From assembly GCA_964237095.1 (NCBI GenBank), contig CAXSIB010000001.1, forward strand, positions 1-28,011: a DNA stretch of 28,011 nt. The letters run 5' to 3'. Each line of letters starts with the position of its first letter. Position 1 is the stretch's first letter. The notes beneath the pieces were generated by a model. The model was not told where the DNA came from. It saw nothing but the letters and a program-made list of their open reading frames with translations, and searched no databases. The DNA comes from an uncultured Actinomycetales bacterium (GTDB lineage: Bacteria > Actinomycetota > Actinomycetes > CAXTBU01). Shown here in pieces: positions 2,236 to 20,691 of this stretch. The position numbers and the translations under genes are program-made.

Positions 2236-5200
2236 TCAGCCGACGGGGACCGAGCCGGCCGGCTCGGCCGGGGCGACCGCGTAGGCCGCGTCCGCGGAAC
2301 CCACCCGGTCCCCCGCCGACCCGTCGGCGGCCCACAGCCCGGCGTAGAGCCCGTCGGCGTGCAGGAGCTGGGCGTGGGTGCCGTCCTCGACGACCCGGCC
2401 GGCGTCCATCACGATGATCCGGTCGGCCTGCGCGGCGGTGGCGAGGCGGTGGGCGATGAGGACCGTCGTGCGGGGGCCGCCCGCCCGCGCCCCGGCGCGG
2501 CGGCGGAGGCGGTCGCCGGCGTCGAGGACGCTGCGTTCGGCCGCCGGGTCCAGCGCCGCGGTCGCCTCGTCGAGCAGCAGCAGGTCGGGGTCGACGAGCT
2601 CGGCCCGGGCCAGGGCGACGAGCTGCTTCTGACCGGCGGACAGGCCGCCGCCGCGCTCGGAGACCGGGTGCCGGAAGCCCGCCGGCAGCGCGTGCAGCAT
2701 GCCGATGGCCCCGACCGACCGGGCCGCCGCCTCGACGTCGGCGGCCGTGGACTCCGGCCGGCCGTAGGCGATGTTCGTCGCGACGTCGCCGGAGAAGAGG
2801 TGCGCCTCCTGCGGCACGACCCCGAGGCGGGCGCGGTAGCCGGCCAGGTCGTAGTGGCGCAGGTCGACCCCGCCCACCTCGAGGGCGCCGTCGGTCACGT
2901 CGTAGAAGCGGGCGAGCAGCTTGACCAGCGTCGACTTGCCCGCGCCGGTCGGCCCGACGAGGGCGACGGACTGGCCCGGCACCAGGGTCAGGTCGATGCC
3001 GCGCAGCGCCTCGGTGGCTGCGCCGGCGTAGCGGAAGTGGACGTCGCGGAACCGGATCGGGCCGGCGAGGTGCGCGGGCACCGCGAGGGCGTCGGGCTCC
3101 GAGACGATGCTCGACGGCGTCCGCAGCAGCGTGCCGATGCGCCGCAGCCCGACCCGGGCCTGCTGGTAGCCGTCGAACACCTGCGACAGCTGCTGGATCG
3201 GGGCGAAGAACAGCGTCAGGTACAGCAGGAACGCGGTGAGCACCCCTGCGGACAGGCCACCCCGCGCGACCTGGCGCGCGCCGATCGCGAGCACCACGGC
3301 GGTCGCGAGGTCCGACAGGAGGTTGACGAACGGGAAGAACGTGGCGATGTAGCGCTGGGCCCGCATGCGGGACTCCAGGTAGGCCTCGCCGCGGCCGGCG
3401 AGACGCGCGTAGGAGATGTCCTCGTGGGTGTAGGCCTGCGAGACCCGCAGCCCGGAGATGTTCTCCTGCAGGTCGGCGTTGACCACGCTGATCCGCTCCC
3501 GGGCCTCGCTGTAGGCGAGCCCGGACAGGTGCCGGAAGACCAGCGTCGCCACGGCCAGCACCGGCATCGGCGCCAGGGCGACCAGCGACAGCTCGGGGTC
3601 GACCCCGACCAGCACCCCCGCGACCCCGGCGACGGTGATGATCGACACGACGGCCTGGTTGAGCCCCGTCTGCAGGAACTGCGACAGCGCGTCGACGTCG
3701 GTCGTCATCCGCGTCATGATCCGACCGCCGAGCTCGCGCTCGTAGAAGTCCAGCCCGAGGCGCTGCAGGTGCGCGAAGCTGCGGATCCGGAGCCCGAAGA
3801 GCAGCCGCTCCCCGGCACGCGCGGCGACCACGGTCTGTCCCGCCACGAAGACCCAGTCCGCCGCGACGACGACGAGCCCGATCGAGGCCGCGATCCACAG
3901 CGCCTGCTCGGAGTGCTTCATGACCCCGCCGTCGACGGCGTAGCGGGCGAGGAGCGGGAAGGCGATCGAGGCGAGGGCGTCCCCGACGACGAGCAGCAGT
4001 GCGAGCACCAGCAGGCCGCGGACCGGGCGGATCAGCCGGGAGAAGCGGAAGTCGGGCTGGGGCGCCCGGATGTCCTCCCCGGGCAGCACCGGCTCCTCCG
4101 TCGACGGCGGGAGCGCCGCCACCAGCTCGAGCAGCTCCGGGCTCGCGGGGATCGCCCCGGCGATCGCGGCCATGCCGCCCATCCCGCCGCCACCGCCGCC
4201 GCCACCGCCGCGTCCGGCCCGCATCCCGGGCATCCCCGAGATGCCCGCGCCGACCCGCGCGGTCGAGCCGGCGTGGACCCCGACCCCGTCGTGGTCCGTG
4301 TGGTCGGCACCGGCGCCGAGAGGGTCGTCGAGGCGTGGGCGGTCCGCGTCGTCCCGCTCGCTCGCGGCGGACCCGTCGCCGTCCATGACCCGGTCCCGCT
4401 CGGCCATGAGCCGGGCGATCTCGTCGACCGCGGGCACCGCCGGCCACAGTGCGGGGGTGATGCCCGTGGCCGCGTCCGGCCGGTCGGCGGCGTTCGCCGT
4501 GCGGTCGCTGTCGGCCTGCAGTGTGGCCCGGACCAGCGCCGCGGCGTCCGCGGCGACCAGCTGGGCGGGCGTCCGCGCGATCTCCGCCCCGGCGGCGTCC
4601 AGCTGGACGGCGTCGGGGTCGAGGGCGTCGTCCGGGCCCGCGAGCATCGCGACGAACTGCGCGTTGCGGGCCGTCAGCTCCGCCTCGGTGCCGATGTCGA
4701 CGACCCGGCCGCGGTCGAGGACCGCGATCCGGTCGGCGAGGGCCAGGGTGGAGCGGCGGTGCGCGATGAGGACGGTGGTGAGCCCGCGCGTGACCTCGGC
4801 GAGGGCGTCGTGGATCCGGGCCTCGGTGGCGGTGTCCACGGCGGAGGTCGCGTCGTCCAGGACGAGCACCCGGGGCCGGCAGAGCAGGGCGCGGGCGAGG
4901 GCGATCCGCTGGCGCTGGCCGCCGGACAGGGTCAGCCCGCGCTCGCCGACCACGGTGTCGTACCCGTCGGGGAGGGCCTCCACGAAGTCCTCGGCGGCGG
5001 CCGCCCGGGCCGCGGCGCGGACCTCGGCATCGCTCGCGTCGGGGCGGCCGTAGGCGATGTTGGCCCGGATGCTGTCGGAGAAGAGGAAGGCCTCCTCGAA
5101 GACCAGCCCGACGGCCCGGCGCAGCTCGTGCATCGACACGTCGGTGACGTCGACGCCGCCGAGGGAGATCGAGCCGGCCGACGGGTCGTAGAAGCGGCCG

Positions 5201-6393
5201 AGCAGCAGGGACACCGTGGACTTGCCCGACCCGGAGCCGCCGACGAGGGCGACCGTCTCCCCGGGCGCCACGCTCAGGTCGAGTCCGACGAGGACCGGGT
5301 CGGCGGCGGTGTACCCGAAGTGGACGTCGCGGAGCTCCAGCCCGAGGGGGCCGTCGGGCACCGCCACCGGGTGGGCGGCCTCGGTGATCGTCGGCCGGGT
5401 GTCGACGAGGTCGTAGACCCGGTCGATGCCCGCCCGTGCCAGCTGGGAGGTCACGACGACGCTGGACAGGATCCGGGCGACGTTGGACAGCATCGCCAGG
5501 TACGCCGCGAAGGCGACGAACGTGCCGAGGTCGATCCGGCCGGTCAGCGCGAGGTACCCGCCGAGCCCGAGGACCCCGACCTGCCCGAGCTGCGGCAGCG
5601 CCCCCAGGGTCGGGGCGAAGCGGGAGTTGATCTTCGCGGAGAGCATCCGGTCGGCGAACAGCAGCCGCCCGGCCCGCTCCATCCGGGAGATCTCCCGCTC
5701 CTCCTGACCGAAGCCCTTGACGACCCGAACGCCGGTGACCGTCTCCTCGACGACCTGCGAGACGTCCGCCGCCCGCTGGGCCGCGAGCCACGTCGCCGGC
5801 AGCAGCCGCCGGCGGGAGCGCCCGGCCGTGAGGGCCGCGAGCGGCACGATCAGCACCGCGACCAGGGTCAGCACCGGCGACAGGTAGAGCATCGCGACGA
5901 TCGAGACCACGAGGAGCACGACGCTGCCGAAGGACAGCGGCACGATCATCAGCAGGCCCTGGACCAGCTGCAGGTCATTGATCACGCGGGACACGACCTG
6001 CCCGACGCGCAGCTCGTCCTGCTTGGCCCCGTCCAGGCGCTGCAGGGCCCGGAAGATCGAGTTCCGCAGGTCGAGCTGGACGTTCAGGGACAGCGCGCCG
6101 CCGAGGTAGCGCCGCGCGAAGGTCATCACGAAGTTGACGGCCGCGAGGATGCCGAGCGCGACCACCGTCGCCGTCAGCGCCGTCGTCCGGTGGTCGACGG
6201 CCTGGTTCACCGCGTGCGCGGTGAAGAGCGGGACCACGCCCTGGACCGCCGTGCCGATCGCCGAGGTGGCCAGACACAGACCCAGCAGCCACGGATGGGT
6301 CGCGCAGGCGGCGACCAGCCGCCGGATCCAGCCTGGACGCGGGACGGGGGAGACCGCAGCGCCGTCGCCGGCCTGGGTGTGAGCGTCTGACAT
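2236..6393 (-). CDS. Fused ABC exporter (TMD-NBD-TMD-NBD), multidrug/lipid exporter type
   Basis: NBD1 GGSGSGKST, LSGGQRQ, VLVLDDATS, IAHR; NBD2 GPTGAGKST, LSAGQKQ, LLLLDEAT, IAHR; two multi-helix hydrophobic domains; start ATG 6393 or TTG 6396. Confidence 0.95.
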   Translation of the reverse strand: MSDAHTQAGDGAAVSPVPRPGWIRRLVAACATHPWLLGLCLATSAIGTAVQGVVPLFTAHAVNQAVDHRTTALTATVVALGILAAVNFVMTFARRYLGGALSLNVQLDLRNSIFRALQRLDGAKQDELRVGQVVSRVINDLQLVQGLLMIVPLSFGSVVLLVVSIVAMLYLSPVLTLVAVLIVPLAALTAGRSRRRLLPATWLAAQRAADVSQVVEETVTGVRVVKGFGQEEREISRMERAGRLLFADRMLSAKINSRFAPTLGALPQLGQVGVLGLGGYLALTGRIDLGTFVAFAAYLAMLSNVARILSSVVVTSQLARAGIDRVYDLVDTRPTITEAAHPVAVPDGPLGLELRDVHFGYTAADPVLVGLDLSVAPGETVALVGGSGSGKSTVSLLLGRFYDPSAGSISLGGVDVTDVSMHELRRAVGLVFEEAFLFSDSIRANIAYGRPDASDAEVRAAARAAAAEDFVEALPDGYDTVVGERGLTLSGGQRQRIALARALLCRPRVLVLDDATSAVDTATEARIHDALAEVTRGLTTVLIAHRRSTLALADRIAVLDRGRVVDIGTEAELTARNAQFVAMLAGPDDALDPDAVQLDAAGAEIARTPAQLVAADAAALVRATLQADSDRTANAADRPDAATGITPALWPAVPAVDEIARLMAERDRVMDGDGSAASERDDADRPRLDDPLGAGADHTDHDGVGVHAGSTARVGAGISGMPGMRAGRGGGGGGGGGMGGMAAIAGAIPASPELLELVAALPPSTEEPVLPGEDIRAPQPDFRFSRLIRPVRGLLVLALLLVVGDALASIAFPLLARYAVDGGVMKHSEQALWIAASIGLVVVAADWVFVAGQTVVAARAGERLLFGLRIRSFAHLQRLGLDFYERELGGRIMTRMTTDVDALSQFLQTGLNQAVVSIITVAGVAGVLVGVDPELSLVALAPMPVLAVATLVFRHLSGLAYSEARERISVVNADLQENISGLRVSQAYTHEDISYARLAGRGEAYLESRMRAQRYIATFFPFVNLLSDLATAVVLAIGARQVARGGLSAGVLTAFLLYLTLFFAPIQQLSQVFDGYQQARVGLRRIGTLLRTPSSIVSEPDALAVPAHLAGPIRFRDVHFRYAGAATEALRGIDLTLVPGQSVALVGPTGAGKSTLVKLLARFYDVTDGALEVGGVDLRHYDLAGYRARLGVVPQEAHLFSGDVATNIAYGRPESTAADVEAAARSVGAIGMLHALPAGFRHPVSERGGGLSAGQKQLVALARAELVDPDLLLLDEATAALDPAAERSVLDAGDRLRRRAGARAGGPRTTVLIAHRLATAAQADRIIVMDAGRVVEDGTHAQLLHADGLYAGLWAADGSAGDRVGSADAAYAVAPAEPAGSVPVG

Positions 6394-6489
6394 CAATTGC
6401 CCAGGCTAGGTGTCGCCGGGACCGGCCGCCCCGCGGCGGTGGCCGGCGGGATCGGCGGGCCGGGTGGGACGCGGCGGGCCGGGGGCACC

Positions 6490-8203: not shown

Positions 8204-9286
8204 ATGGCGCAGCCGGGTCCGACCGAGACCGACGACGTCCACCCGCCCCTCCGGGACGTCGGGGGACCCTCCTCACGGGCCGTCACCTTCCTGCGGTCCG
8301 CGCTGCTCGGCCGGCCGGCGGGGGCGTTCACCGCGGCCGACGTCCCCGACCAGACCGGCCGGACGGTGCTGGTCACGGGCGCGACGTCCGGGCTCGGTCT
8401 CCGCTCGGCGCAGCTCCTCGCACGGGCGGGGGCGCGGGTACTGCTGACCGCACGCGACGCCGGGCGGGGGGAGGTCGCGTTCCGCCGGGTGGCGGCGACC
8501 GCGTCCGGGCCTGTCCCCGAGATGGTCGCCCTCGACCTCGCGGACCTCGCCTCCGTCGCCGCGGCGGCCGCCGACGTCGCGGCGCGGGTCGACCGCCTCG
8601 ACCTCGTCCTGGCCAACGCCGGGGTCATGGCGACTCCGCGCGGGCGCACCGTCGACGGCTTCGAGACCCAGATCGGCACCAACCACCTGGGCCACTTCGC
8701 CCTCGTCGGGCGGCTGCTGCCGCTGCTGCGCCCGCGCCCGGGTCCGGTGCCGCTCTCGCAGTCCGGGTCGACCCCGGACGGCACACCGCGGGTCGTGGTG
8801 GTCACCTCGCCGGCGCACCGCGTCGGGCGGGTGACGGTCTCCGACCTGAACGGGGAGGGGCGCCGCTACTCGCCGTGGGGCGCCTACGGCCAGTCCAAGC
8901 TCGCCAACCTCCTGTTCGCGCGGGAGCTGCAGCACCGGGCGGACGAGCACGGGCGGTCGCTGCTCGCCGTCGCCGCCCACCCCGGCTTCGCCTCGACCGG
9001 CCTCGTCGCGAGCTCGAAAGTGGGCTCCGGGCTGCTCCGGCCGCTCGCCCGGTCGGTCGCCCACGTCCTGGCGCAGTCCCCGCAGGCCGGCGTGCTCCCC
9101 CAGCTGTACGCCGCGACCATGCCCGACGTCCGGCCGCTGGAGGTCTTCGGCCCCGCCGGCCCCGGCCAGTGGGTCGGCGCCCCCGTCCGGGTCCCCGTCG
9201 CTCCGGCGGCCCACGACGACGTGACCGCCGCCGCGCTCTGGATCGTGTCCGAGCAGCTCACGGGCGTCACCTACGAGTGGAGCTGA
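8204..9286 (+). CDS. Classical SDR oxidoreductase (retinol dehydrogenase/WWOX-like)
   Basis: VTGATSGLG, LDLADLAS, ANAG, TNHLGHF, YGQSKLAN (YxxxK), AAHPG. Confidence 0.93.
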   Translation: MAQPGPTETDDVHPPLRDVGGPSSRAVTFLRSALLGRPAGAFTAADVPDQTGRTVLVTGATSGLGLRSAQLLARAGARVLLTARDAGRGEVAFRRVAATASGPVPEMVALDLADLASVAAAAADVAARVDRLDLVLANAGVMATPRGRTVDGFETQIGTNHLGHFALVGRLLPLLRPRPGPVPLSQSGSTPDGTPRVVVVTSPAHRVGRVTVSDLNGEGRRYSPWGAYGQSKLANLLFARELQHRADEHGRSLLAVAAHPGFASTGLVASSKVGSGLLRPLARSVAHVLAQSPQAGVLPQLYAATMPDVRPLEVFGPAGPGQWVGAPVRVPVAPAAHDDVTAAALWIVSEQLTGVTYEWS

Positions 9287-10149
9287 CGCTGCCCGTCGAG
9301 CCGCCGCCCTCCCGCTGGGTCTTCGACACGACGGCCTTCACCCGAGGCGGGCCGCCGGCGTGCCCCGACCCGCGCGTCGCCCCCACGGCCGCCGCCGCCC
9401 CGGCCGACGGGTCCGGGGACGGCTCCGTCGGTTCCGACGGCTCCGACCGGGCCGACCCCGAACTGGACCAGGGCCCCGACGACGTCGTCGGCCGCGGCGC
9501 CGACCTCGAGGCCGGGACCCTGCTGGCGGCCTACCGCGCCGGGGTCTTCCCGATGCCGGTGGCCCGGCGGGGCGCCCCCGTCTGGTGGTGCCCGGCGCGG
9601 CGGGGGGTGCTCGAGCCGGCCGCGCTGGTGGTCGCCCGCTCGCTGGCGAAGTCCGCACGACGGTTCGAGGTCCGCGTCGACACGGCGTTCGACGCGGTGA
9701 TCGGCGCGTGCGCCCGGACCTCGCGGCCCGGGGGGTGGATCACCCGCGACCTGGTCCGGGCCTACACCCGCCTCCACGCGCTCGGCTGGGCCCACTCGGT
9801 CGAGGCCTGGACACCGGCGGGCGAGCTCGCGGGCGGTCTCTACGGGGTCGCGATCGGCGGGTTGTTCGCCGGGGAGTCGATGTTCCACGCCGAGGGTCCC
9901 TGGGCGCGCGACGCCAGCAAGGTCGCGCTCGCGGGGCTCGTCGAGCTGCTCACCGGCGACGACCGCGGCGGCGGTGACCACGGCGGCGGCGGTGACCGCG
10001 GGGCCGGCGGCGGCCGCGACCGGCTCGTCGACGTGCAGTGGCTCACCCCCCACCTGCGCTCCCTCGGCGCGGGCACCGTCTCCCGCCGCGACTACCTGAC
10101 CCGTCTCCCGGGTCTGTTCGAGACGCCGCTCCCGCGCCGCTGGCGGTGA
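9277..10149 (+). CDS. aat: Leucyl/phenylalanyl-tRNA--protein transferase
   Basis: GADLEAGTLLAAYRAGVFPMP, WWCP.RRGVL, VDTAFDAVI.AC, GWIT, LH.LGWAHSVEAW, LAGGLYGVAIGGLFAGESMF, ASKVAL, DVQW.TPHL.SLGA; start uncertain (GTG 9277 overlaps SDR stop). Confidence 0.93.
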   Translation: MELTLPVEPPPSRWVFDTTAFTRGGPPACPDPRVAPTAAAAPADGSGDGSVGSDGSDRADPELDQGPDDVVGRGADLEAGTLLAAYRAGVFPMPVARRGAPVWWCPARRGVLEPAALVVARSLAKSARRFEVRVDTAFDAVIGACARTSRPGGWITRDLVRAYTRLHALGWAHSVEAWTPAGELAGGLYGVAIGGLFAGESMFHAEGPWARDASKVALAGLVELLTGDDRGGGDHGGGGDRGAGGGRDRLVDVQWLTPHLRSLGAGTVSRRDYLTRLPGLFETPLPRRWR

Positions 10150-10214
10150 GATCAGCCGGGCGCCGGGGGTGACTCCGGCCGGGCGCCGGGGGCGCCCCGC
10201 TAGCGTCGGCGGAC

Positions 10215-11978
10215 ATGGTGACCCGCATGTCGACCCTGTTCCTGCGCACCCTGCGGGACAACCCGGCCGACGCCGAGCTCCCGGGGCACCGCCTCCTCGT
10301 CCGCGGCGGTTACATCCGTCGCGCCGCCCCCGGCATCTCGTCCTGGCTGCCGATGGGCCTGCGGGTGCTCCGCCGGGTCGAGGCGATCGTGCGGGCGGAG
10401 ATGGACGCCGCGGGTGCGCAGGAGGTGCACTTCCCGGCGCTGCTGCCCCGCGAGCCCTACGAGGCCACGGGCCGTTGGACGGAGTACGGCGACGGGATCT
10501 TCCGGCTGAAGGACCGCCGGGGCGGTGACTACCTCCTGGGCCCGACGCACGAGGAGATGTTCACGCTCCTCGTGAAGGACCTCTACTCCTCCTACAAGGA
10601 CCTGCCGCTCGCGCTCTACCAGATCCAGACGAAGTACCGCGACGAGGCCCGCCCCCGGGCCGGTCTCCTGCGGGGGCGCGAGTTCATCATGAAGGACTCG
10701 TACTCCTTCGACCTCGACGAGGAGGGCCTGGCGCGCTCCTACGAGGTCCACCGCGCCGCCTACGAGGCGATCTTCGTGCGTCTCGGGCTGCCCTACGTGA
10801 TCGTCTCGGCGATGGCGGGGGCCATGGGCGGGTCGCGCAGCGAGGAGTTCCTCGCGCCGGCGGAGAACGGCGAGGACACCTACGTGCGCAGCCCCGGCGG
10901 GTACGCGGCCAACGTGGAGGCGGTGCGCACGGTCGTGCCGCCGGACCTGCCGCTCGACGGACTCCCCCCGGCGCAGGTGCACGACACCCCCGACAGCCCG
11001 ACGATCGCCAGCCTCGTGGCCCTGCTGCAGGAGCGTCTGCCCCGGCCGGACCGGGCGTGGACCGCCGCGGACACGCTGAAGAACGTGATCGTGCGGCTCG
11101 TCGCCCCGGACGGCTCGTGGGAGCCCCTCGCGATCGGCCTGCCCGGCGACCGCGACGTCGACCCCGTGCGACTGGAGGCCGCGGTGTACCCGGCGTCCGT
11201 GGAGCCGTTCACCGACGAGGACTTCGCGGCCCACCCCACCCTCGTCAAGGGCTACATCGGCCCCGGCGGGCTGGGCACGGCGTCGCCCGGCGGCATCCGG
11301 TACCTCCTCGACCCTCGGGTCGTCACCGGGACCGCGTGGGTCACGGGCGCGAACGAGCGGGGACGCCACGTCCTCGGGCTCGTCGCGGGCCGGGACTTCA
11401 CCGGCGACGGCACGGTGGAGGCGGCGGAGGTCCGCGTCGGGGACCCGGCCCCGGACGGCTCCGGCCCGCTCGCGGCCGCCCGCGGCATCGAGATCGGGCA
11501 CGTCTTCGCCCTGGGGCGGAAGTTCGCCGAAGCCCTCGGGCTGACCGTCCTGGACGAGAGGGGACAGCAGGTCACGGTGACGATGGGCTCCTACGGCCTC
11601 GGCGTCACCCGCGCGGTCGCGGCCGTCGCGGAGCTCCACCACGACGACCGCGGCCTGCGCTGGCCGCGGTCGGTGGCGCCGTTCGACGTGTACGTGGTCG
11701 CGGTCGGGCGTACCCCCGAAGCAGTCGAGGCCACCGCGGCCCTGGCCACGGCGCTGGAGGCCGCGGGCCTGTCGGTGCTGCTCGACGACCGGCCGCGGGT
11801 GAGTGTCGGGGTGAAGCTGACCGACGCCGAGCTGCTCGGGATCCCCGACATCGTGGTCGCCGGGCGCGGCCTCGCGACCGGGACCGTCGAGCACGTCGAC
11901 CGCATCTCCGGCGACCGCCTCGAGGTGGGGCTGGCCGAGATCGCGGGTCGCCTCGCCGCTCTGCGTCCGGCCGCCTGA
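10215..11978 (+). CDS. proS: Proline--tRNA ligase, bacterial type with INS editing domain
   Basis: [54 protein letters not shown], editing-domain TLKNV and [17 protein letters not shown]-terminal anticodon domain. Confidence 0.97.
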
Positions 11979-12072
11979 CGACGCGTCCCGACGACACCGG
12001 CCGACGAGGCGGCCGACGGCTCCGCGTTCGGCGGGCTGACCATCGGGAACTCCGGCTCGGCTGGGTCCGTCT

Positions 12073-12139
12073 GAGGTCGATCCGCCGCCTCGGCAGATCA
12101 TGGAGCCCGGACACATGATCATCGGCGGATCGAGACCTC
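12073..12139. repeat. Interrupted palindrome (REP-like element or terminator) downstream of first proS
   Basis: GAGGTC GATCCGCCG ..ATCATG..CATGAT.. CGGCGGATC .. GACCTC; three nested complementary segments of 6, 9 and 6 bp. Confidence 0.7.
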
Positions 12140-12146
12140 CTGCCCA

Positions 12147-12175
12147 TTGACTGTGAATGGCCCACCTGTGAGGGT
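12147..12175 (+). promoter_or_regulatory. Putative housekeeping-sigma promoter of the S53 peptidase
   Basis: TTGACT-17 nt-GAGGGT (with TGn), short CCATT/AATGG inverted repeat over the -35; GAGGAG SD at 12269-12274. Confidence 0.4.
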
Positions 12176-12280
12176 TCCGTCACCGACAGCAGCGAGCGTC
12201 CGCTGCCGCCGCGCGTCCCGGCGCCGTCCCGGGAGCCGCACCGACCGGCCGGGGGCCGGTCCCTGCTCGAGGAGTCCTGC

Positions 12281-13663
12281 ATGAGGTCGTGGATGCGAAC
12301 GGGTGCGGTGGCGGTCGCCGTCGCCGGGCTGCTGGGGGTGCCCGCCGCGAGCGGCTGGGCACGGACGCCGGCACCGGTGCGGGGGCTGACCACCCAGCGG
12401 GCGGCGGCGAACACCGTCCCCCGGCTGCGGGCCCAGCTCCGGGCGGGGACGCTGGCGAGCAGCCACGGCACCCTCGCCGTCTGCGCGGTGCACCACCTGG
12501 CCTGCCGGGCCGAGGTGCTGACCTCGTCGAAGACGTCGAAGGACCTGCTGATCACCGGGACGCCCGTCGGGTACGGCGCCACCGACCTCGAGGCCGCCTA
12601 CGGGACCAACGCGACCGACGGCGGGACCGGGACGATCGCGATCATCGACGCCGGGGCGTACCCGACGCTCGAGTCCGACCTCACGATCTACCGCGACGCC
12701 TACGGCCTGCCCCGGTGCACCGTCGCGAGCGGCTGCTTCAAGCAGGTCACCTACAAGGGTGGTGCGCCCTACCAGCCGTCGACGGACGAGTTCACCTCCT
12801 TCGTCGAGGAGCTGGTCTCCCTGGAGACGGCGCTGGACGTCGACATGGCGTCGGCGGCCTGTCCGCGTTGCAAGATCGTCGAGATCCAGATCCCGGCCCT
12901 CGACGCGGCTCCGGAGAGCCAGGCCGACGAGGACGTCGCGACGCTGCACTTCGCGCAGGCGACGCAGGAGGCGGTCCGCCTCGGCGCGAAGTCCGCGAGC
13001 ATCAGCTACGGCTACGACGCGGACACCTACACCGACACGGGCAGCCCGGCGGCCGACATGCGCCACCACGGCATCGCCGTCGTCGCCTCCAGCGGGGACA
13101 GCGGGGTCAACCTCGGCGGCAACAGCTGGCCGGCGGACCTGACCACGGTGATCGCCGCGGGTGGCACGTCCCTCTACACCGACACGACGGTGGCGCGCGG
13201 CTACACCGAGACCGCCTGGAACGGCGCGGGCAGCGGGTGCACGTTCGACCTCGGACCGGCGGTCGGGCAGCCCGAGTCGGTGGCCGCGGCGTGCTTCGGC
13301 AACCGGACCGACACCGACATCTCGGCCGTCGCGGACCCCTACACCGGGGTCGCGGTCTACAACAGCTACGCCCCGGCCACGGGCTTCCCCTACGGGTTCG
13401 TCGTCGTCGGCGGGACCAGCGCGTCCTCGCCGTTCATCGCGGGGATGTACGCCCGCGCCGGGGTGCCGTCGACGGTGGTCGGCCCGAGCGCCCTCTACAC
13501 GGGTTCCGGGACGCGGTTCAACGACGTCCTCATCGGCGCCAACGACTACCCGGGGGAGTGCGAGTCCTACGGCTACGACGACACGCGGCTCTGCACCTCC
13601 GGACCCGGCTGGGACGGGCCGACCGGGCGCGGCACCCCGAAGGGCCTGAAGACCTTCCGCTGA
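12281..13663 (+). CDS. Secreted S53 (sedolisin-like) serine peptidase
   Basis: Signal peptide; ETALDVDM (Glu/Asp of triad), ASSGDSG (oxyanion Asp), GGTSASSP (Ser nucleophile), GWDGPTGRGTP Ca-binding end. Confidence 0.9.
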   Translation: MRSWMRTGAVAVAVAGLLGVPAASGWARTPAPVRGLTTQRAAANTVPRLRAQLRAGTLASSHGTLAVCAVHHLACRAEVLTSSKTSKDLLITGTPVGYGATDLEAAYGTNATDGGTGTIAIIDAGAYPTLESDLTIYRDAYGLPRCTVASGCFKQVTYKGGAPYQPSTDEFTSFVEELVSLETALDVDMASAACPRCKIVEIQIPALDAAPESQADEDVATLHFAQATQEAVRLGAKSASISYGYDADTYTDTGSPAADMRHHGIAVVASSGDSGVNLGGNSWPADLTTVIAAGGTSLYTDTTVARGYTETAWNGAGSGCTFDLGPAVGQPESVAAACFGNRTDTDISAVADPYTGVAVYNSYAPATGFPYGFVVVGGTSASSPFIAGMYARAGVPSTVVGPSALYTGSGTRFNDVLIGANDYPGECESYGYDDTRLCTSGPGWDGPTGRGTPKGLKTFR

Positions 13664-13686
13664 CCCCGTCCCCGCGCGCCTGAGCA

Positions 13687-13722
13687 CCGCCGGCCCGCTC
13701 CCGCCCGGGAGCGGGCCGGCGG
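13687..13722 (+). terminator. 16-bp perfect stem-loop after S53 gene
   Basis: CCGCCGGCCCGCTCCC-gccc-GGGAGCGGGCCGGCGG; no U-tract. Confidence 0.75.
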
Positions 13723-13730
13723 CCGTCGTC

Positions 13731-13763
13731 CCGGGGATCGCCGGGGTTCGCCGGGGCTCGCCG
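13731..13763. repeat. 10-bp tandem repeat CCGGGG(A/T/C)TCG x3 upstream of second proS -10
   Basis: ccggggatcg ccggggttcg ccggggctcg ccg, then TAGGAT at 13767-13772. Confidence 0.85.
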
Positions 13764-13780
13764 CCCTAGGATCAGCGCCC

Positions 13781-15193
13781 GTGGCCCGTCAGCGCGTCCT
13801 CACCCCGCAGGGGGAGGACTTCCCCGCCTGGTACCAGGACGTCGTGGCGAAGGCGGAGCTGGCCGAGTCCGGGCCGGTCCGCGGGACGATGGTCATCCGG
13901 CCCTACGGCTACGCGCTCTGGGAGCGGATGCAGGCCGAGCTCGACGCGCGGATCAAGGCCACCGGCGCGCGCAACGCCTACTTCCCGCTGTTCATCCCGG
14001 AGTCCTACCTGCACCGGGAGGCCGAGCACGTCGCCGGCTTCAGTCCCGAGCTCGCGGTCGTGACCCACGCCGGCGGGAAGGTCCTCGAGGAGCCGGTCGT
14101 CGTGCGGCCCACCTCGGAGACCGTGGTCGGGGAGTACCTCGGGAAGTGGGTCCAGTCCTGGCGGGACCTGCCCCTGCTGCTCAACCAGTGGGCGAACGTG
14201 GTGCGCTGGGAGCTGCGGCCGCGGATCTTCCTGCGCACGACGGAGTTCCTCTGGCAGGAGGGGCACACCGCGCACGCGGACGCCGCCGACGCGAGCGCCT
14301 ACGCACGGCGGATCCTCGACGACGTCTACGCGGACTTCATGGTGTCGGTGCTGGCGATCCCGGTCGTCCGCGGGCGGAAGACCGCGAAGGAGCGCTTCGC
14401 CGGGGCGGTGGACACCCTCACCTGCGAGGCGATGATGGGCGACGGGCGCGCCCTGCAGATGGGCACGTCGCACGAGCTCGGCCAGAACTTCGCGCGGGCG
14501 TTCGGCATCGACTTCCTCGACGCGGCCGGCGAGCGCCGCCTCGCGCACACCACGTCCTGGGGCTCGTCGACCCGCATGGTCGGCGGCCTGATCATGTGCC
14601 ACGGCGACGATGCGGGGCTCCGGGTGCCGCCCGCGCTGGCCGCGGTCCAGGTGCTGGTGACCCTCGTGCGGGCCGATCCCGAGGTCGACCGGGTCGCGCG
14701 AGCACTGCTCTCGGAGCTGCTGGCGGCCGGGGTCCGCGCCGAGCTCGACGACCGGGTCGACGTCCAGTACGGCCGCCGCGCCGTCGACGCCGAGCTGAAG
14801 GGCTACCCCGTGCGGGTGGAGGTCGGGCCGCGCGACCTCGCGACCGGGGTCGTCACCGTCGTCCGGCGGATCCCCGGCGAGTACACCACGGTCGCCCTCG
14901 CGGCGGTCGCGGACACCGTGGTCGACGCCCTCGCCCGGGACCAGGCGGCGCTGCTCGCCGAGGCCACCCGCCGGCGCGACGAGCGGACCGTCGACGTCGA
15001 CACCGTCGAGGATGCCGCGGCGGCCGCGGCGACCGGGTGGGCCCGCATCGCGTGGTCCACCCTCGGCGTCGCCGGCGAGGAGACCCTGTCCCAGCGGGGT
15101 GTCACCGTGCGCTGCCTCGTCCGCGAGGACGGCGGCGTCCCCGATGCCGGCGACGACGCCGGGCTGGTCGCGGTGGTCGCCCGCGCGTACTGA
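13781..15193 (+). CDS. proS: Proline--tRNA ligase, eukaryote/archaeal-like type (no INS domain)
   Basis: DFPAWYQDVV.KAELA, VRGTMVIRPYGYALWE, YFPLFIP, RPTSET, NQWANVVRWE.R.R.FLRTTEFLWQEGHTAH, ERFAGA, LQMGTSH.LGQNF, TSWG.STRMVG, terminal ARAY. Confidence 0.96.
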   Translation: MARQRVLTPQGEDFPAWYQDVVAKAELAESGPVRGTMVIRPYGYALWERMQAELDARIKATGARNAYFPLFIPESYLHREAEHVAGFSPELAVVTHAGGKVLEEPVVVRPTSETVVGEYLGKWVQSWRDLPLLLNQWANVVRWELRPRIFLRTTEFLWQEGHTAHADAADASAYARRILDDVYADFMVSVLAIPVVRGRKTAKERFAGAVDTLTCEAMMGDGRALQMGTSHELGQNFARAFGIDFLDAAGERRLAHTTSWGSSTRMVGGLIMCHGDDAGLRVPPALAAVQVLVTLVRADPEVDRVARALLSELLAAGVRAELDDRVDVQYGRRAVDAELKGYPVRVEVGPRDLATGVVTVVRRIPGEYTTVALAAVADTVVDALARDQAALLAEATRRRDERTVDVDTVEDAAAAAATGWARIAWSTLGVAGEETLSQRGVTVRCLVREDGGVPDAGDDAGLVAVVARAY

Positions 15194-15231
15194 CCGGAGC
15201 CGGTGTGCCCCGGGGTCGGTATGGTCCCGCG

Positions 15232-17235
15232 ATGACGCGTCACCGCCTGCTCTGCGGGCTCGCCCTCTCGGTGTCCCTGCTGCTGCCGGCGGCCGGCCCG
15301 GCGGTCGGTCCCGCGGCCGCGGCCGGCACGGCGTCGGGACGGGACGCCGGGTCGGGACGAGCGGTGACGGTGTCGACGACGGCACCGGCGCCCGCGGTGC
15401 AGCTCCGGGTCGACCAGGCCGGCTACCTGCCCGGTGACCGCAAGACCGCGTACGTCCTGTCGCCGCGGGCGTTGCCGGGCGCGGTGGTCGACGTGGTGGA
15501 CCGCCGGGGCCGGCGGGTCGCCCGGGTCCACCTGGTCCGGCGCGGGGCGTGGAGCGCCGCGTTCCCCGACGTCTACAGCGCGGACTTCAGCCGCGTGACC
15601 CGGAGGGGGCGCTACCACCTCGTCCTGCCCGGGACCGCCGTCCGGTCGGTGGCGTTCCCGGTGCTGACCCGCGCCGAGCTGTGGGATCCCGTGCTGAGCA
15701 AGGGGATCGCGTTCGACCGGGTGCAGCGCGACGGCGCCGGCGTCGTCGCCGGCCCGCTGCGCCGCCGGCCGTCCCACCTCGACGACGCGGCCGCGCAGCT
15801 GTACCTGTGGCCGGACTTCGAGCCCGACTCCGACGCGATCACCGACGCCGACCTCACCCCGTCCGGCGGGACGGTCGACGTCGAGGGCGGCTGGTTCGAC
15901 GCCGGGGACTACCTGAAGCTGACCCACTCGACCGCCTACGCCGACGTGCTCCTCTACGAGGCGGCCCGCAGCCTCGGCCCGGCCGCGCCGGCCTCGCTGC
16001 TCGCGGAGGCCCGCCACGGCTCGGACTGGCTCGCCAGGATGTGGGACTCGCGGACGAAGACCCTGTACCTGCAGGTGGGCATCGGCTCCGGCAACGACGC
16101 CGGCACCTTCACCGGGGACCACGACCTGTGGCGGCTGCCCGAGCGCGACGATTCCGACCGCGCGGCCGTCGACCGCTACGCCGCCGCCCACCGCCCGGTG
16201 TTCCGGGCCGCGCCGCCGGGCCGCCCGATCAGTCCCAACCTCGCCGGCCGGGTCTCGGCCGCCTTCGCCCTGGCCGCGCAGGCCGACGCGCGCGCCCACC
16301 CCCGCCGCGCCCGGGCCGAGCTGGCCGACGCGACGTCCCTGTACGCGATGGCCGACACGGCGTCCCCGCCCGTGCCGCTCGTCACCGCGCTGCCGAACGC
16401 GTTCTACCCGGAGGCCGGCTGGCACGACGACATGGAGCTCGGCGCGGTCGAGACCGCCCGCGCGCGGCTCGCCCTGCACCGACCCGCGCAGCCCTACCTG
16501 GGCGACGCGGCGCACTGGGCCCGGGCGTACCTGCGCGACGACGTCCACCACGGCGCGGGCGACACCTTCAACCTGTACGACGTGAGCGCCCTCGCGCACA
16601 CCGATCTCGCCCGGACGATACGCGCGGTCCGCGGGCAGGCGACGGGCCACCTCGCTGTCACGCGCGCCGCGCTCGTGGCCGACCTCCGCCGGCAGCTGGC
16701 CGGCGCGGCCCGGCGGTCGGCCGCCGAGCCGTTCGGGGCCGGGGTGGACGACACGCAGTTCGACGTCGACTCCCACACCCTCGGCCTGGTCGCCACCGAG
16801 GGCTGGTACCGCTCGCTCACCGGCGACCGCCGCTTCGATGATCTCGCGGCCTCCCTGCGGGGCTGGGTGTTCGGGGCGAACGCGTGGGGCGTGAGCTTCA
16901 TGGTCGGCGTGGGCACCACCTATCCGCACTGCATGCAGCACCAGGTCGCCAACCTCAGGGGCAGCACCGACGGCCGCGCCCCGCTGGCGGTCGGCGCCGT
17001 CGTCAACGGCCCGAACGGCGCCGCCCAGTTCGACGGCGGCCTCGGGGGACTGCAGGACGGCATGGTCGCCTGCCCCGCGGCCGGCACCACCGCCGCGGTC
17101 CCGGCCGGGGTCTACGACGGGTCGGGCAGTGTGTACCTGGACGACGTGCGGTCGTGGCAGACCGACGAGCCCGCCCTCGACATGACCGGCGCGGCGATCA
17201 TCGCGGCCGCCGCCCAGCTCGGCCGTCCCCGGTGA
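15232..17235 (+). CDS. Secreted glycoside hydrolase family 9 with N-terminal Ig-like domain, 667 aa
   Basis: Signal peptide; RVDQAGYLPGDRK (CelD_N-like); DVEGGWFDAGDYLK; GANAWGVSFMVGVG; YLDDVRSWQTDEPALD; ATG 6 nt after TATGGT. Confidence 0.88.
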   Translation: MTRHRLLCGLALSVSLLLPAAGPAVGPAAAAGTASGRDAGSGRAVTVSTTAPAPAVQLRVDQAGYLPGDRKTAYVLSPRALPGAVVDVVDRRGRRVARVHLVRRGAWSAAFPDVYSADFSRVTRRGRYHLVLPGTAVRSVAFPVLTRAELWDPVLSKGIAFDRVQRDGAGVVAGPLRRRPSHLDDAAAQLYLWPDFEPDSDAITDADLTPSGGTVDVEGGWFDAGDYLKLTHSTAYADVLLYEAARSLGPAAPASLLAEARHGSDWLARMWDSRTKTLYLQVGIGSGNDAGTFTGDHDLWRLPERDDSDRAAVDRYAAAHRPVFRAAPPGRPISPNLAGRVSAAFALAAQADARAHPRRARAELADATSLYAMADTASPPVPLVTALPNAFYPEAGWHDDMELGAVETARARLALHRPAQPYLGDAAHWARAYLRDDVHHGAGDTFNLYDVSALAHTDLARTIRAVRGQATGHLAVTRAALVADLRRQLAGAARRSAAEPFGAGVDDTQFDVDSHTLGLVATEGWYRSLTGDRRFDDLAASLRGWVFGANAWGVSFMVGVGTTYPHCMQHQVANLRGSTDGRAPLAVGAVVNGPNGAAQFDGGLGGLQDGMVACPAAGTTAAVPAGVYDGSGSVYLDDVRSWQTDEPALDMTGAAIIAAAAQLGRPR

Positions 17236-19415: not shown

Positions 19416-20573
19416 TCAGCCGGTCGCGGCCAGCGTGGTCTCGACGAGCCCCTCGGCCGCGGTGAGCGCCTTGCGGTCCGCCGCGTCCGCGGCCCGGCGG
19501 GCCTTGCGCGCACGGGTCTCGGCGACATCGGCGGCGGCGTCGGCCTTCGCGGCGGCGTGCTGAGCCGCGAGGAGCTTCAGGACCGCCGACTCGAGGCGGC
19601 CGTGGGACGCGGCGTCCCAGGCCTCGGGGTCCGCGCCGATCCGGCGCAGCGTGCCCGCGACCGTCAGCCCCGCATGGAAACGGTCGACGACGCGCGGGTC
19701 GACGTAGCTCTTGCGGGCCACGGCCGGGGTGTTGCCCAGCTGCTCCGAGACGGCCTTCATGACCTCGTTGACCGACCGCTTCTGCCGGGTCGCGCTCGCG
19801 CCGGCGTCGTAGCGGGCGGCGAGGTCGGCCGCCGCGAGCACGGTGCCGTGCCAGGTCCGGAAGTCCTTCGCGGTGACGCTGTCGCCGACGACCTCGTGCA
19901 GGTACCGGTTGATGTCGGTGCTCGTCACGTCGTGCCAGCGGTCGTTCTCCCGCCAGGCCAGGAGGTCGTCCCCGCCGCCGGTCCGCCGCTTCAGGGTGGA
20001 GATCGCATCCCGGACGGCGGGGTCGGTGATGACGATCCGGCGGTCCTTGCCGGCCTTGGCGATGTAGCGGAAGCGCACCTCGGACTTCCCGACCACGACG
20101 TGCTCGCGCAGCAGGGTGGCGAGGCCGTAGCTGTGGTTCTCCTCCGCGTACTCCTCGCTGCCGACCCGGAAGAAGCCCAGCTCCAGCAAGCGGAACGCGG
20201 TCGCGAGGGCACGCTCGCGCGGCATCCCCCGCAGCGCGAGGTGCTCCTGGACGACCTTCCGGGCGGCGGGGAGCCGGCGGGCCACGAACACGATCCGGTC
20301 GTGCTTCGCGCGGTCGCGCTGCTCGCGCCAGTCCGGGTGGTAGCGGTACTGGCGCCGGCCGCGGTCGTCGGTGCCGACCGCCTGGATGTGGCCGTTGGCG
20401 TACCGGCAGATCCACACGTCGGAGTAGGCGGGCGGGATCGCGAGGTGGGCGATGCGGTCGGTCACCTCGTGGTCGAGGATCCGTTTCCCGTCGGTGTCGA
20501 GGTAGGCCCAGCCCTTCCCCGACCGCCGCCGGCCGAAGCCGGGATCGGTGGGGGAGACGTGTCGCAGCCGCAT
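19416..20573 (-). CDS. Bacterial DNA topoisomerase IB
   Basis: AIPPAYSDVWIC...GHIQAVG.D.RGRRQYRYH; catalytic set FRVG (Arg), AKAG (Lys), KDFRTW (Arg), LGNT (Asn), RKSY (Tyr); ATG 6 nt after CACGCT. Confidence 0.93.
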   Translation of the reverse strand: MRLRHVSPTDPGFGRRRSGKGWAYLDTDGKRILDHEVTDRIAHLAIPPAYSDVWICRYANGHIQAVGTDDRGRRQYRYHPDWREQRDRAKHDRIVFVARRLPAARKVVQEHLALRGMPRERALATAFRLLELGFFRVGSEEYAEENHSYGLATLLREHVVVGKSEVRFRYIAKAGKDRRIVITDPAVRDAISTLKRRTGGGDDLLAWRENDRWHDVTSTDINRYLHEVVGDSVTAKDFRTWHGTVLAAADLAARYDAGASATRQKRSVNEVMKAVSEQLGNTPAVARKSYVDPRVVDRFHAGLTVAGTLRRIGADPEAWDAASHGRLESAVLKLLAAQHAAAKADAAADVAETRARKARRAADAADRKALTAAEGLVETTLAATG

Positions 20574-20691
20574 CGTCTCAGCGTGCAACGACCTCGGGCG
20601 GGGCGCACCCGGAGGGCGGGCGGTCGCGTGCCCGGCCGTGTCGTGCGGGTGGTGGTGCGATCCGCCGACGGTCGCCCCGAGTCCTCTCGCG

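Follow-up and report, generated by a model that had tools for sequence, protein, structure and literature searches.

The window analysed here is a stretch of 28,011 nucleotides from an uncultured Actinomycetales bacterium (assembly GCA_964237095.1), and is the whole of contig CAXSIB010000001.1 (C1) of a metagenome-assembled genome (MAG) that spans 3.76 Mb and 650 contigs, with 82% completeness and 3.7% contamination. Two genes for prolyl-tRNA synthetase (ProRS) of distinct types are present on its forward strand, separated by 1802 nt: proS1, for an enzyme of the bacterial type (P-type), and proS2, for one of the archaeal/eukaryote-like type (E-type). A peptidase gene is the sole gene within the gap, and all three genes are intact and on the same strand. 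The first-pass annotation of this DNA had recognised two intact ProRS of distinct types, of 587 and 470 aa and 1.8 kb apart, and its account agrees with the coordinates, profile matches and domains found here. The features of the locus are as follows.

10215–11978, + strand: proS1, P-type ProRS of 587 aa with INS editing domain (NF006625, TIGR00409, Pfam and 5UCM)
12281–13663, + strand: gene for a secreted S8/S53-like serine peptidase of 460 aa, preceded by a GAGGAG ribosome-binding site (weak PF00082 match, motifs by eye)
13781–15193, + strand: proS2, E-type ProRS of 470 aa with a C-terminal Tyr and without an editing domain (TIGR00408 and 1H4Q)
10201–10206, + strand: TAGCGT, -10-like hexamer 8 nt before the proS1 ATG (sequence reading)
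13767–13772, + strand: TAGGAT, -10-like hexamer 8 nt before the proS2 GTG (sequence reading and motif scan)
13687–13722, + strand: perfect GC-rich hairpin after the peptidase gene (17-nt inverted-repeat arms, 16 bp in the fold)
9283–10149, + strand: aat, leucyl/phenylalanyl-tRNA-protein transferase (TIGR00667, 149.7 bits against a cut-off of 143.55)
ATG at ~15232/15233, end at 17235, + strand: GH9 cellulase gene (Pfam scan and start-site reading)

The product of proS1 exceeds the curated cut-offs of NF006625 (718 bits against 558) and TIGR00409 (497 bits against 307). Its class II core (PF00587) is split by a tRNA_edit domain (PF04073) at residues 282–390, and an anticodon-binding domain is also present. 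The protein aligns end to end with the Pseudomonas aeruginosa ProRS 5UCM (E 1e-130), and in the INS domain its ..TLKNVIV.. Lys and ..GRHV.. His match the 5UCM positions. These two residues are taken to be the conserved Lys and His of this domain. In the P-type tree proS1 is sister to the proS of genome G001, from one other genus of the same family (99 in the Shimodaira-Hasegawa-like approximate likelihood ratio test, SH-aLRT). G001 has the P-type only, and the profile score of its proS is about the same as that of proS1. proS1 is the resident bacterial-type enzyme of the lineage, with an editing domain in cis.

The E-type enzyme encoded by proS2 scores 454 bits against TIGR00408 (cut-off 437), the lowest E-type score in the genome sample. 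It has a class II core and an anticodon-binding domain, the INS domain being absent, and no Pfam match to residues 380–470 was found. The best solved relative is the Thermus thermophilus ProRS 1H4Q (E 2.6e-142, 478 bits, residues 2–446). The protein ends in ...VARAY, and members of its clade likewise end in Tyr. In a comparison with 79 clade members, proS2 retains 148 of the 150 alignment columns with a conservation of at least 95%, its two deviations being in the normal range for the set. In the C-terminal stretch two of the three Cys of Thermus are substituted (..HCGDKAC.. to ..WSTLGVAG..) and one is kept (the Cys of ..RCV/RCL); the C-terminal domain of the Thermus enzyme uses Cys as zinc ligands. 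The substitutions are common to the whole actinomycete clade, which indicates a trait of that clade and not decay. No frameshifts or stop codons were found in proS1 or proS2, and judged by their sequences both genes look functional and fully constrained.

In the E-type trees proS2 is located inside a clade that is nearly all Actinomycetota (100 SH-aLRT) and that broadly tracks taxonomy, with Streptomycetaceae, Micromonosporaceae, Intrasporangiaceae, Frankia and Acidimicrobiia. Its branch is longish (0.36–0.40), no sequence is more than 73% identical to it, and its codon usage is host-like. The clade position, the branch length with this best identity and the codon usage together argue that proS2 is not a recent import from another phylum. 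It belongs to an old actinomycete-specific clade of editing-less archaeal/eukaryote-like enzymes.

The credible tRNAPro genes of the whole genome, which is 82% complete, have the anticodons GGG, CGG and UGG, and all have C1...G72 and A73, a set of the bacterial identity type. The ARAGORN 'tRNA-Pro' calls of 88–96 nt are in our judgement false matches in GC-rich DNA. With all credible tRNAPro of the bacterial type, proS2 must serve tRNAs of this type, and proS1 and proS2 would both have to charge the same set. In alignment with 1H4Q the motif-2 loop of proS2 has RPR where Thermus has RTR. The T. thermophilus ProRS (1H4Q/1HC7) is, like proS2, a bacterial E-type enzyme that lacks editing and serves bacterial-type tRNAPro, but it is the only ProRS of its organism, whereas the genome of the window also has a P-type.

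A close comparison is with Bacillus thuringiensis, as described in the available passages of PMC11229370. There, too, the genome has one enzyme of each type, ProRS1 being the P-type and ProRS2 the E-type; every tRNAPro has the bacterial G72/A73, and the C-terminal Tyr of the E-type enzyme is kept. According to these passages the motif-2 loop of E-type enzymes is tied to the recognition of bacterial-type tRNAPro; it has diverged from the eukaryotic FKHPQ to TTR in B. thuringiensis and to RPR in proS2. The B. thuringiensis enzymes differ from those of the window in belonging to another phylum and another E-type clade, and in that their function was established by experiment and not from sequence alone. 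Adjacency of the two B. thuringiensis genes is not mentioned in these passages, in which condition-specific use is the reading given for ProRS1 and ProRS2.

An editing-less ProRS was thought in the first-pass annotation to need a trans-editing factor, which was said to be missing from the window. The window does indeed contain no tRNA_edit protein besides the INS domain of proS1, but the co-resident proS1 has an editing domain and a free-standing tRNA_edit protein (YbaK/ProX superfamily) of 184 aa is encoded elsewhere in the genome (G000, contig C103:6544–6918; L006:1369–1923, + strand). This protein scores 68 bits against PF04073 and is far below the YbaK equivalog cut-offs. The conserved Lys position of the family is seemingly Asn (..ESANCVVL.., by eye), and for this reason its activity is uncertain. 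BLASTP of the INS domain against it gave no usable alignment. Ala-tRNAPro made by proS2 could be cleared by the INS domain of proS1 or by this protein.

A TAGnnT box precedes the start codon of each of the two genes by 8 nt, TAGCGT with ATG and TAGGAT with GTG, as had been noted from the sequence at first pass. The boxes are the general leaderless -10 signal of this genome and are not special to proS. A TANNNT-type box is a common -10 signal of leaderless mRNAs in actinomycetes. TANNNT is very scarce in this DNA, with only 11 sites on both strands of the 28-kb window (for example at 15221–15226 and in the regions of 24321, 8127 and 6396), six of which are 6–9 nt before the start of a real gene. 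The genes with such a box include those for the GH9, PHP, EcsC-like and ABC proteins. This suggests that a large share of the genes in this DNA are leaderless, and that TANNNT alone could fix start codons. The E-type gene on metagenome contig L118, which is considered below, has a similar layout (TAGGCT, 7 nt, GTG).

The hairpin at 13687–13722 has a folding energy of -55.8 kcal/mol (z = -4.2), none of 200 shuffles folding as well, and no comparable hairpin was found after proS1. It is likely to be a terminator that insulates proS2. From the -10 boxes and the hairpin after the peptidase gene, the likely transcription units would be proS1, perhaps reading on into the peptidase gene, then proS2, then GH9. 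An Rfam scan of 9000–16000 at E up to 1 identified no T-box and no other known leader. A scan for sigma-70 and terminator consensus sequences gave nothing useful in this high-GC DNA, in which GC is 72–79% along the window and third-position GC is ~0.95 in real genes.

The occurrence of the two types was determined in a class sample of 301 Actinomycetes genomes from 141 genera, 294 of them at least 90% complete. The P-type tally includes the unpublished genomes G031, G042, G023 and G255. An E-type over the cut-off is present in 45 genomes, from 19 of the genera, and a P-type in 274. Both types are found in 21 genomes, which bears out the statement made at first pass that some actinomycetes encode both, while 24 have the E-type only and 3 have neither. 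With ~7% of the sampled genomes dual and ~8% E-type only, a 'second proS' should therefore not be called a resistance gene in annotation without context.

Both types occur, for example, in Terrabacter terrae JCM 14283, Longispora albida DSM 44784, Asanoa ishikariensis DSM 44718 and Streptomyces sp. YU58, and the E-type alone was found in Frankia nepalensis CN4. In a large-genome Streptomyces-like genus, one member of which has an E-type that groups with Streptomyces, both types are present in 9 of 20 genomes, 73–115 kb apart where they are on one contig. One genome of this genus has a partial E-type match (G085:C1:6161691–6162578, model positions 150–448, 230 bits, below the cut-off) 118 kb from the P-type gene, which may be a decaying E-type and so the opposite outcome of coexistence. 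The unpublished genome G015 has both types on separate contigs, its E-type being 72% identical to proS2. Four of the 21 dual genomes, all from one genus, have only a weaker P-type-like match. These genomes (G046, G092, G176 and G203; family f46, genus g47) have a full E-type and a P-type-like match with E ~1e-81 to 1e-86, against 1e-150 to 1e-180 for P-type matches elsewhere. The weak match is not within 9 kb of the E-type gene and could be a shortened or repurposed P-type paralogue.

Adjacency, taken as within ~9 kb, is seen in one of the 21 dual genomes, that of the window. Among the 80 species loci closest to proS2, none has a P-type neighbour within flanks of up to 10 kb. A search of a limited literature collection found no description of adjacent P-type and E-type proS pairs, or of in situ ProRS displacement, in actinobacteria. 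The dual state is thus common and already described, while the side-by-side arrangement is rare.

Adjacent pairs do occur in other genomes. A scan of metagenome contigs with proS2 identified six contigs in which a P-type gene adjoins an E-type gene. A further two pairs, in species genomes, were found among 40 E-type loci fetched from a phylum sample of 401 genomes, the tally of which includes the unpublished genomes G538, G677, G333, G454, G627, G361, G478, G526, G317, G565 and G428. The adjacent pairs outside the window belong to two actinobacterial lineages.

In the first of these, GTDB family f69, five genomes with the P-type only have the gene order X2-P-Y (G445, G324, G366, G419 and G352). 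The order is X2-E-P-Y in genomes G406 and G380 and on contigs L131 and L132, where the E and P genes are back to back with their start codons 5–31 nt apart; the P gene is the sole P-type gene in G406 and G380. Contig L128 has the same layout, with ~90% DNA identity to L132, and its P gene is broken by an internal deletion of ~900 bp (~300 codons, with motifs 1 and 2 and most of the INS domain) and by an in-frame stop. Genome G338, which is 97% complete, has the E gene and no P-type gene, the distance from E to Y being 556 nt. The f69 tally includes the unpublished genome G393, which is not used in the synteny series. Start-codon spacings of 5, 31 and 25 nt are seen at L226 10560–10590, L222 1580–1625 and L132 3800–3850. 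In these back-to-back pairs the promoters must be inside the coding region of the other gene, or the genes are leaderless with overlapping -10 boxes.

In the second lineage the order A-B-P-E-C-D is found on contigs L110, L108 and L118, with ~37 nt between the P and E genes on L118. The sister clade L104–L109 has A-B-E-C-D, with the same flanking genes and the E-type only. In the E-only contexts, the gaps on L105, L104, L109 and L106 and in G338 showed no remnant of a P-type gene. In the P-type tree L110 and L118 form the sister group of the family of the window (97 SH-aLRT), and in the E-type tree the adjacent pairs are at three separate places. A single E-type clade of the window with L108, L110 and L118 has p = 0.024 in the approximately unbiased (AU) test, the group having been named after the tree was seen; a single origin of adjacency for these four is disfavoured on this basis.

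Across these two lineages the states run from P only, through P with E and broken P with E, to E only, in a constant gene context. Read from the sequences, this is replacement in situ. The window itself is, with moderate confidence, the two-enzyme stage of the same recurrent P-type to E-type replacement in Actinomycetota. An E-type gene would land beside the resident P-type proS; the two would then coexist, each with its own leaderless-type -10 box and charging the same tRNAPro; and the P-type gene would later be broken and then deleted in place, to leave the E-type only. Both genes are ordinary members of known families, and their adjacency is informative as a likely intermediate of replacement in situ.

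Xenologous gene displacement in situ, reportedly described by Omelchenko, Makarova, Wolf, Rogozin and Koonin in 2003, is said to have been inferred mostly from operon end states. The concept is that of a non-orthologue with the same function at the position of the resident gene, with relatives that have either gene in the same context. Compared with these end states, family f69 and the L110 clade display the coexisting intermediate and the decaying resident directly. The window has the non-orthologues side by side, but single-gene relatives in the same context were not seen. When horizontal transfer replaces an aminoacyl-tRNA synthetase, this is usually deduced from trees afterwards, and here the coexistence stage is physically visible. 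It opens to experiment the questions of how an essential enzyme is swapped without a functional gap, whether the newcomer is immediately active on the tRNAPro of the host, and which protein proofreads once an editing-less enzyme takes over.

The adjacent pairs are arranged in three ways: in tandem, in tandem around a passenger gene, and back to back. By a rough, post hoc estimate two given genes are within 2 kb of each other in ~0.1% of 4-Mb genomes, and ~0.1 adjacent lineages would be expected by chance among the ~100 sampled, where 3 were seen. A tentative extension, for which we would claim rather less than an even chance, is that the E-type gene lands beside the resident P-type far more often than by chance, through a biased integration route and perhaps with a trans-editing phase of coexistence, and that the window is a snapshot of a directional and ongoing ProRS switch in Actinomycetota. 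One-sided homologous recombination with DNA of relatives whose proS slot is already E-type is a candidate route. In the coexistence phase the editing domain of the P-type enzyme may proofread in trans for the editing-less newcomer.

Several observations weigh against placing the window on the replacement path. No relative shares its flanks, and G001 and G015 have no flanking genes in common with it. G001, from the other genus of the family, has the P-type only and in a different context, and the states before and after that of the window were not seen. The suggestion made in the first-pass annotation, of an in-place acquisition caught mid-replacement, is thus supported by the series in the two other lineages but not by the window's own before and after states. 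An unrelated gene is present between the proS genes of the window, unlike the other adjacent pairs. In the E-type tree the window does not group with L108, L110 and L118 (AU p = 0.024), and the adjacency here is probably an independent event, or an old one that has been rearranged. The join between proS1 and the peptidase gene (11979–12280) rests on one MAG contig. Both genes look fully constrained, which a stable two-enzyme state would fit equally well. The dual state is found across the Streptomyces-like genus (9 of 20 genomes) and can therefore be long-lived. With no relative sharing the flanks and both genes intact, the direction at the window, towards replacement rather than a stable pair, is one that we infer.

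A stable two-enzyme state is a serious alternative, and is compatible with replacement. The E-type would be kept as a stress- or inhibitor-tolerant, or condition-specific, isoenzyme, and the adjacency would be due to chance or to a shared neighbourhood. Condition-specific use had also been put forward at first pass. Both genes of the window are intact and have separate promoter-like signals, and the spacing is conserved, at 73–118 kb, in the dual genomes of the large-genome genus (9 of 20). In B. thuringiensis both enzymes are expressed and both charge bacterial tRNAPro, and ProRS2 tolerates heat, H2O2 and dithiothreitol better (PMC11229370). The rough post hoc excess of adjacent lineages over chance (3 against ~0.1) is not expected under such a division of labour, and the pair resolves to E-only in both lineages with comparable relatives. 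Likewise, there are 24 E-only genomes in the class sample, and loss of the P-type is therefore frequent. As an explanation of the window, division of labour is possible rather than probable. No support was found in the neighbourhood for self-resistance or acquired resistance, in which proS2 would guard against a natural ProRS inhibitor of the organism or its neighbours (febrifugine-, cispentacin- or phosmidosine-like). Second aminoacyl-tRNA synthetase copies often serve resistance (examples in PMC9437257 and PMC11229370). Among the 20 window genes scanned with Pfam, however, no biosynthetic, export-coupled or regulatory genes of such a kind flank the pair, and the E-type clade is structured by the taxonomy of actinomycetes and not by clusters. 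ProRS2, the bacterial E-type enzyme that has been characterised, is itself halofuginone-tolerant (PMC11229370). Inhibitor-resistance redundancy, as raised at first pass, was not upheld by these findings and is very unlikely.

It is similarly improbable that the contig is an assembly artefact, in which DNA of an organism with a P-type gene is fused to that of another with an E-type gene. The MAG has 650 contigs with 82% completeness and 3.7% contamination, and the join at 11979–12280 was not found in a second assembly; no exact copies of proS1 or the peptidase gene were found in other assemblies, and proS2 alone had a second contig. Against this, neither the composition nor the third-position GC changes along the region, and proS1 and proS2 share no DNA similarity able to cause a false join. 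An independent Logan contig is identical over 12637–16276, from the peptidase gene through proS2 into GH9, and adjacent P and E pairs are present in six other contigs and two species genomes. The uniform composition and the identical independent contig make a chimera unlikely. Recoding is the least credible explanation, with hardly any probability left to it. One copy would be ProRSx-like and, with a special tRNA, place proline at non-proline codons; in plant-pathogenic Streptomyces a ProRS paralogue is known to be paired with its own tRNAProA (PMC9437257), and it is likewise a second ProRS in an actinomycete. ProRSx is a bacterial-type duplicate coupled to a special tRNA gene (PMC9437257), whereas proS2 is E-type and has no tRNA gene nearby. 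There are no tRNA genes in the window, and the credible tRNAPro of the genome (82% complete) are those with GGG, CGG and UGG. A recoding pair of the ProRSx type is all but ruled out by the enzyme type and the absence of a nearby tRNA gene.

The gene between proS1 and proS2 had been assigned at first pass to the S53 peptidases. That a single gene is located here was confirmed; its assignment to S53 is plausible but not proven. The only profile match is a weak one to Peptidase_S8 (PF00082, 23.3 bits against a cut-off of 21.8), while the motifs ExxLD, SGDSG and GGTSASSP can be read by eye in the translation. We take these to be sedolisin (S53) hallmarks. Sedolisins (MEROPS S53) have a Ser-Glu-Asp catalytic set, in contrast to the Asp-His-Ser of S8. 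The N-terminus is signal-peptide-like. A PDB sequence search with the peptidase gave no match, no homologue is present beside proS in any compared locus, and a repeat search identified no flanking direct repeats around the gene that would mark an insertion.

The neighbours of the pair, from a Pfam scan of all 20 window genes, include the leucyl/phenylalanyl-tRNA-protein transferase, a short-chain dehydrogenase/reductase, the GH9 cellulase, an enolase-family enzyme, an epimerase and a type IB topoisomerase, among others. The aat gene ends 65 nt upstream of proS1 and adds a second aminoacyl-tRNA-using enzyme beside the synthetase pair; ~78 residues precede its Pfam domain if translation begins close to the start of the frame. 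On the reverse strand at 2236–6396 a single gene of 1386 aa combines two ABC exporter halves, both of them complete with membrane domain and ATPase, and matches to it are located near the E-type proS in Terrabacter loci. The topoisomerase gene, also on the reverse strand (19416–20588), encodes a bacterial type IB enzyme (Topoisom_I and Top1B_N_bact) and adjoins a PIN-domain gene. Two metagenome contigs, L142 and L145, likewise have homologues of it close to the E-type proS.

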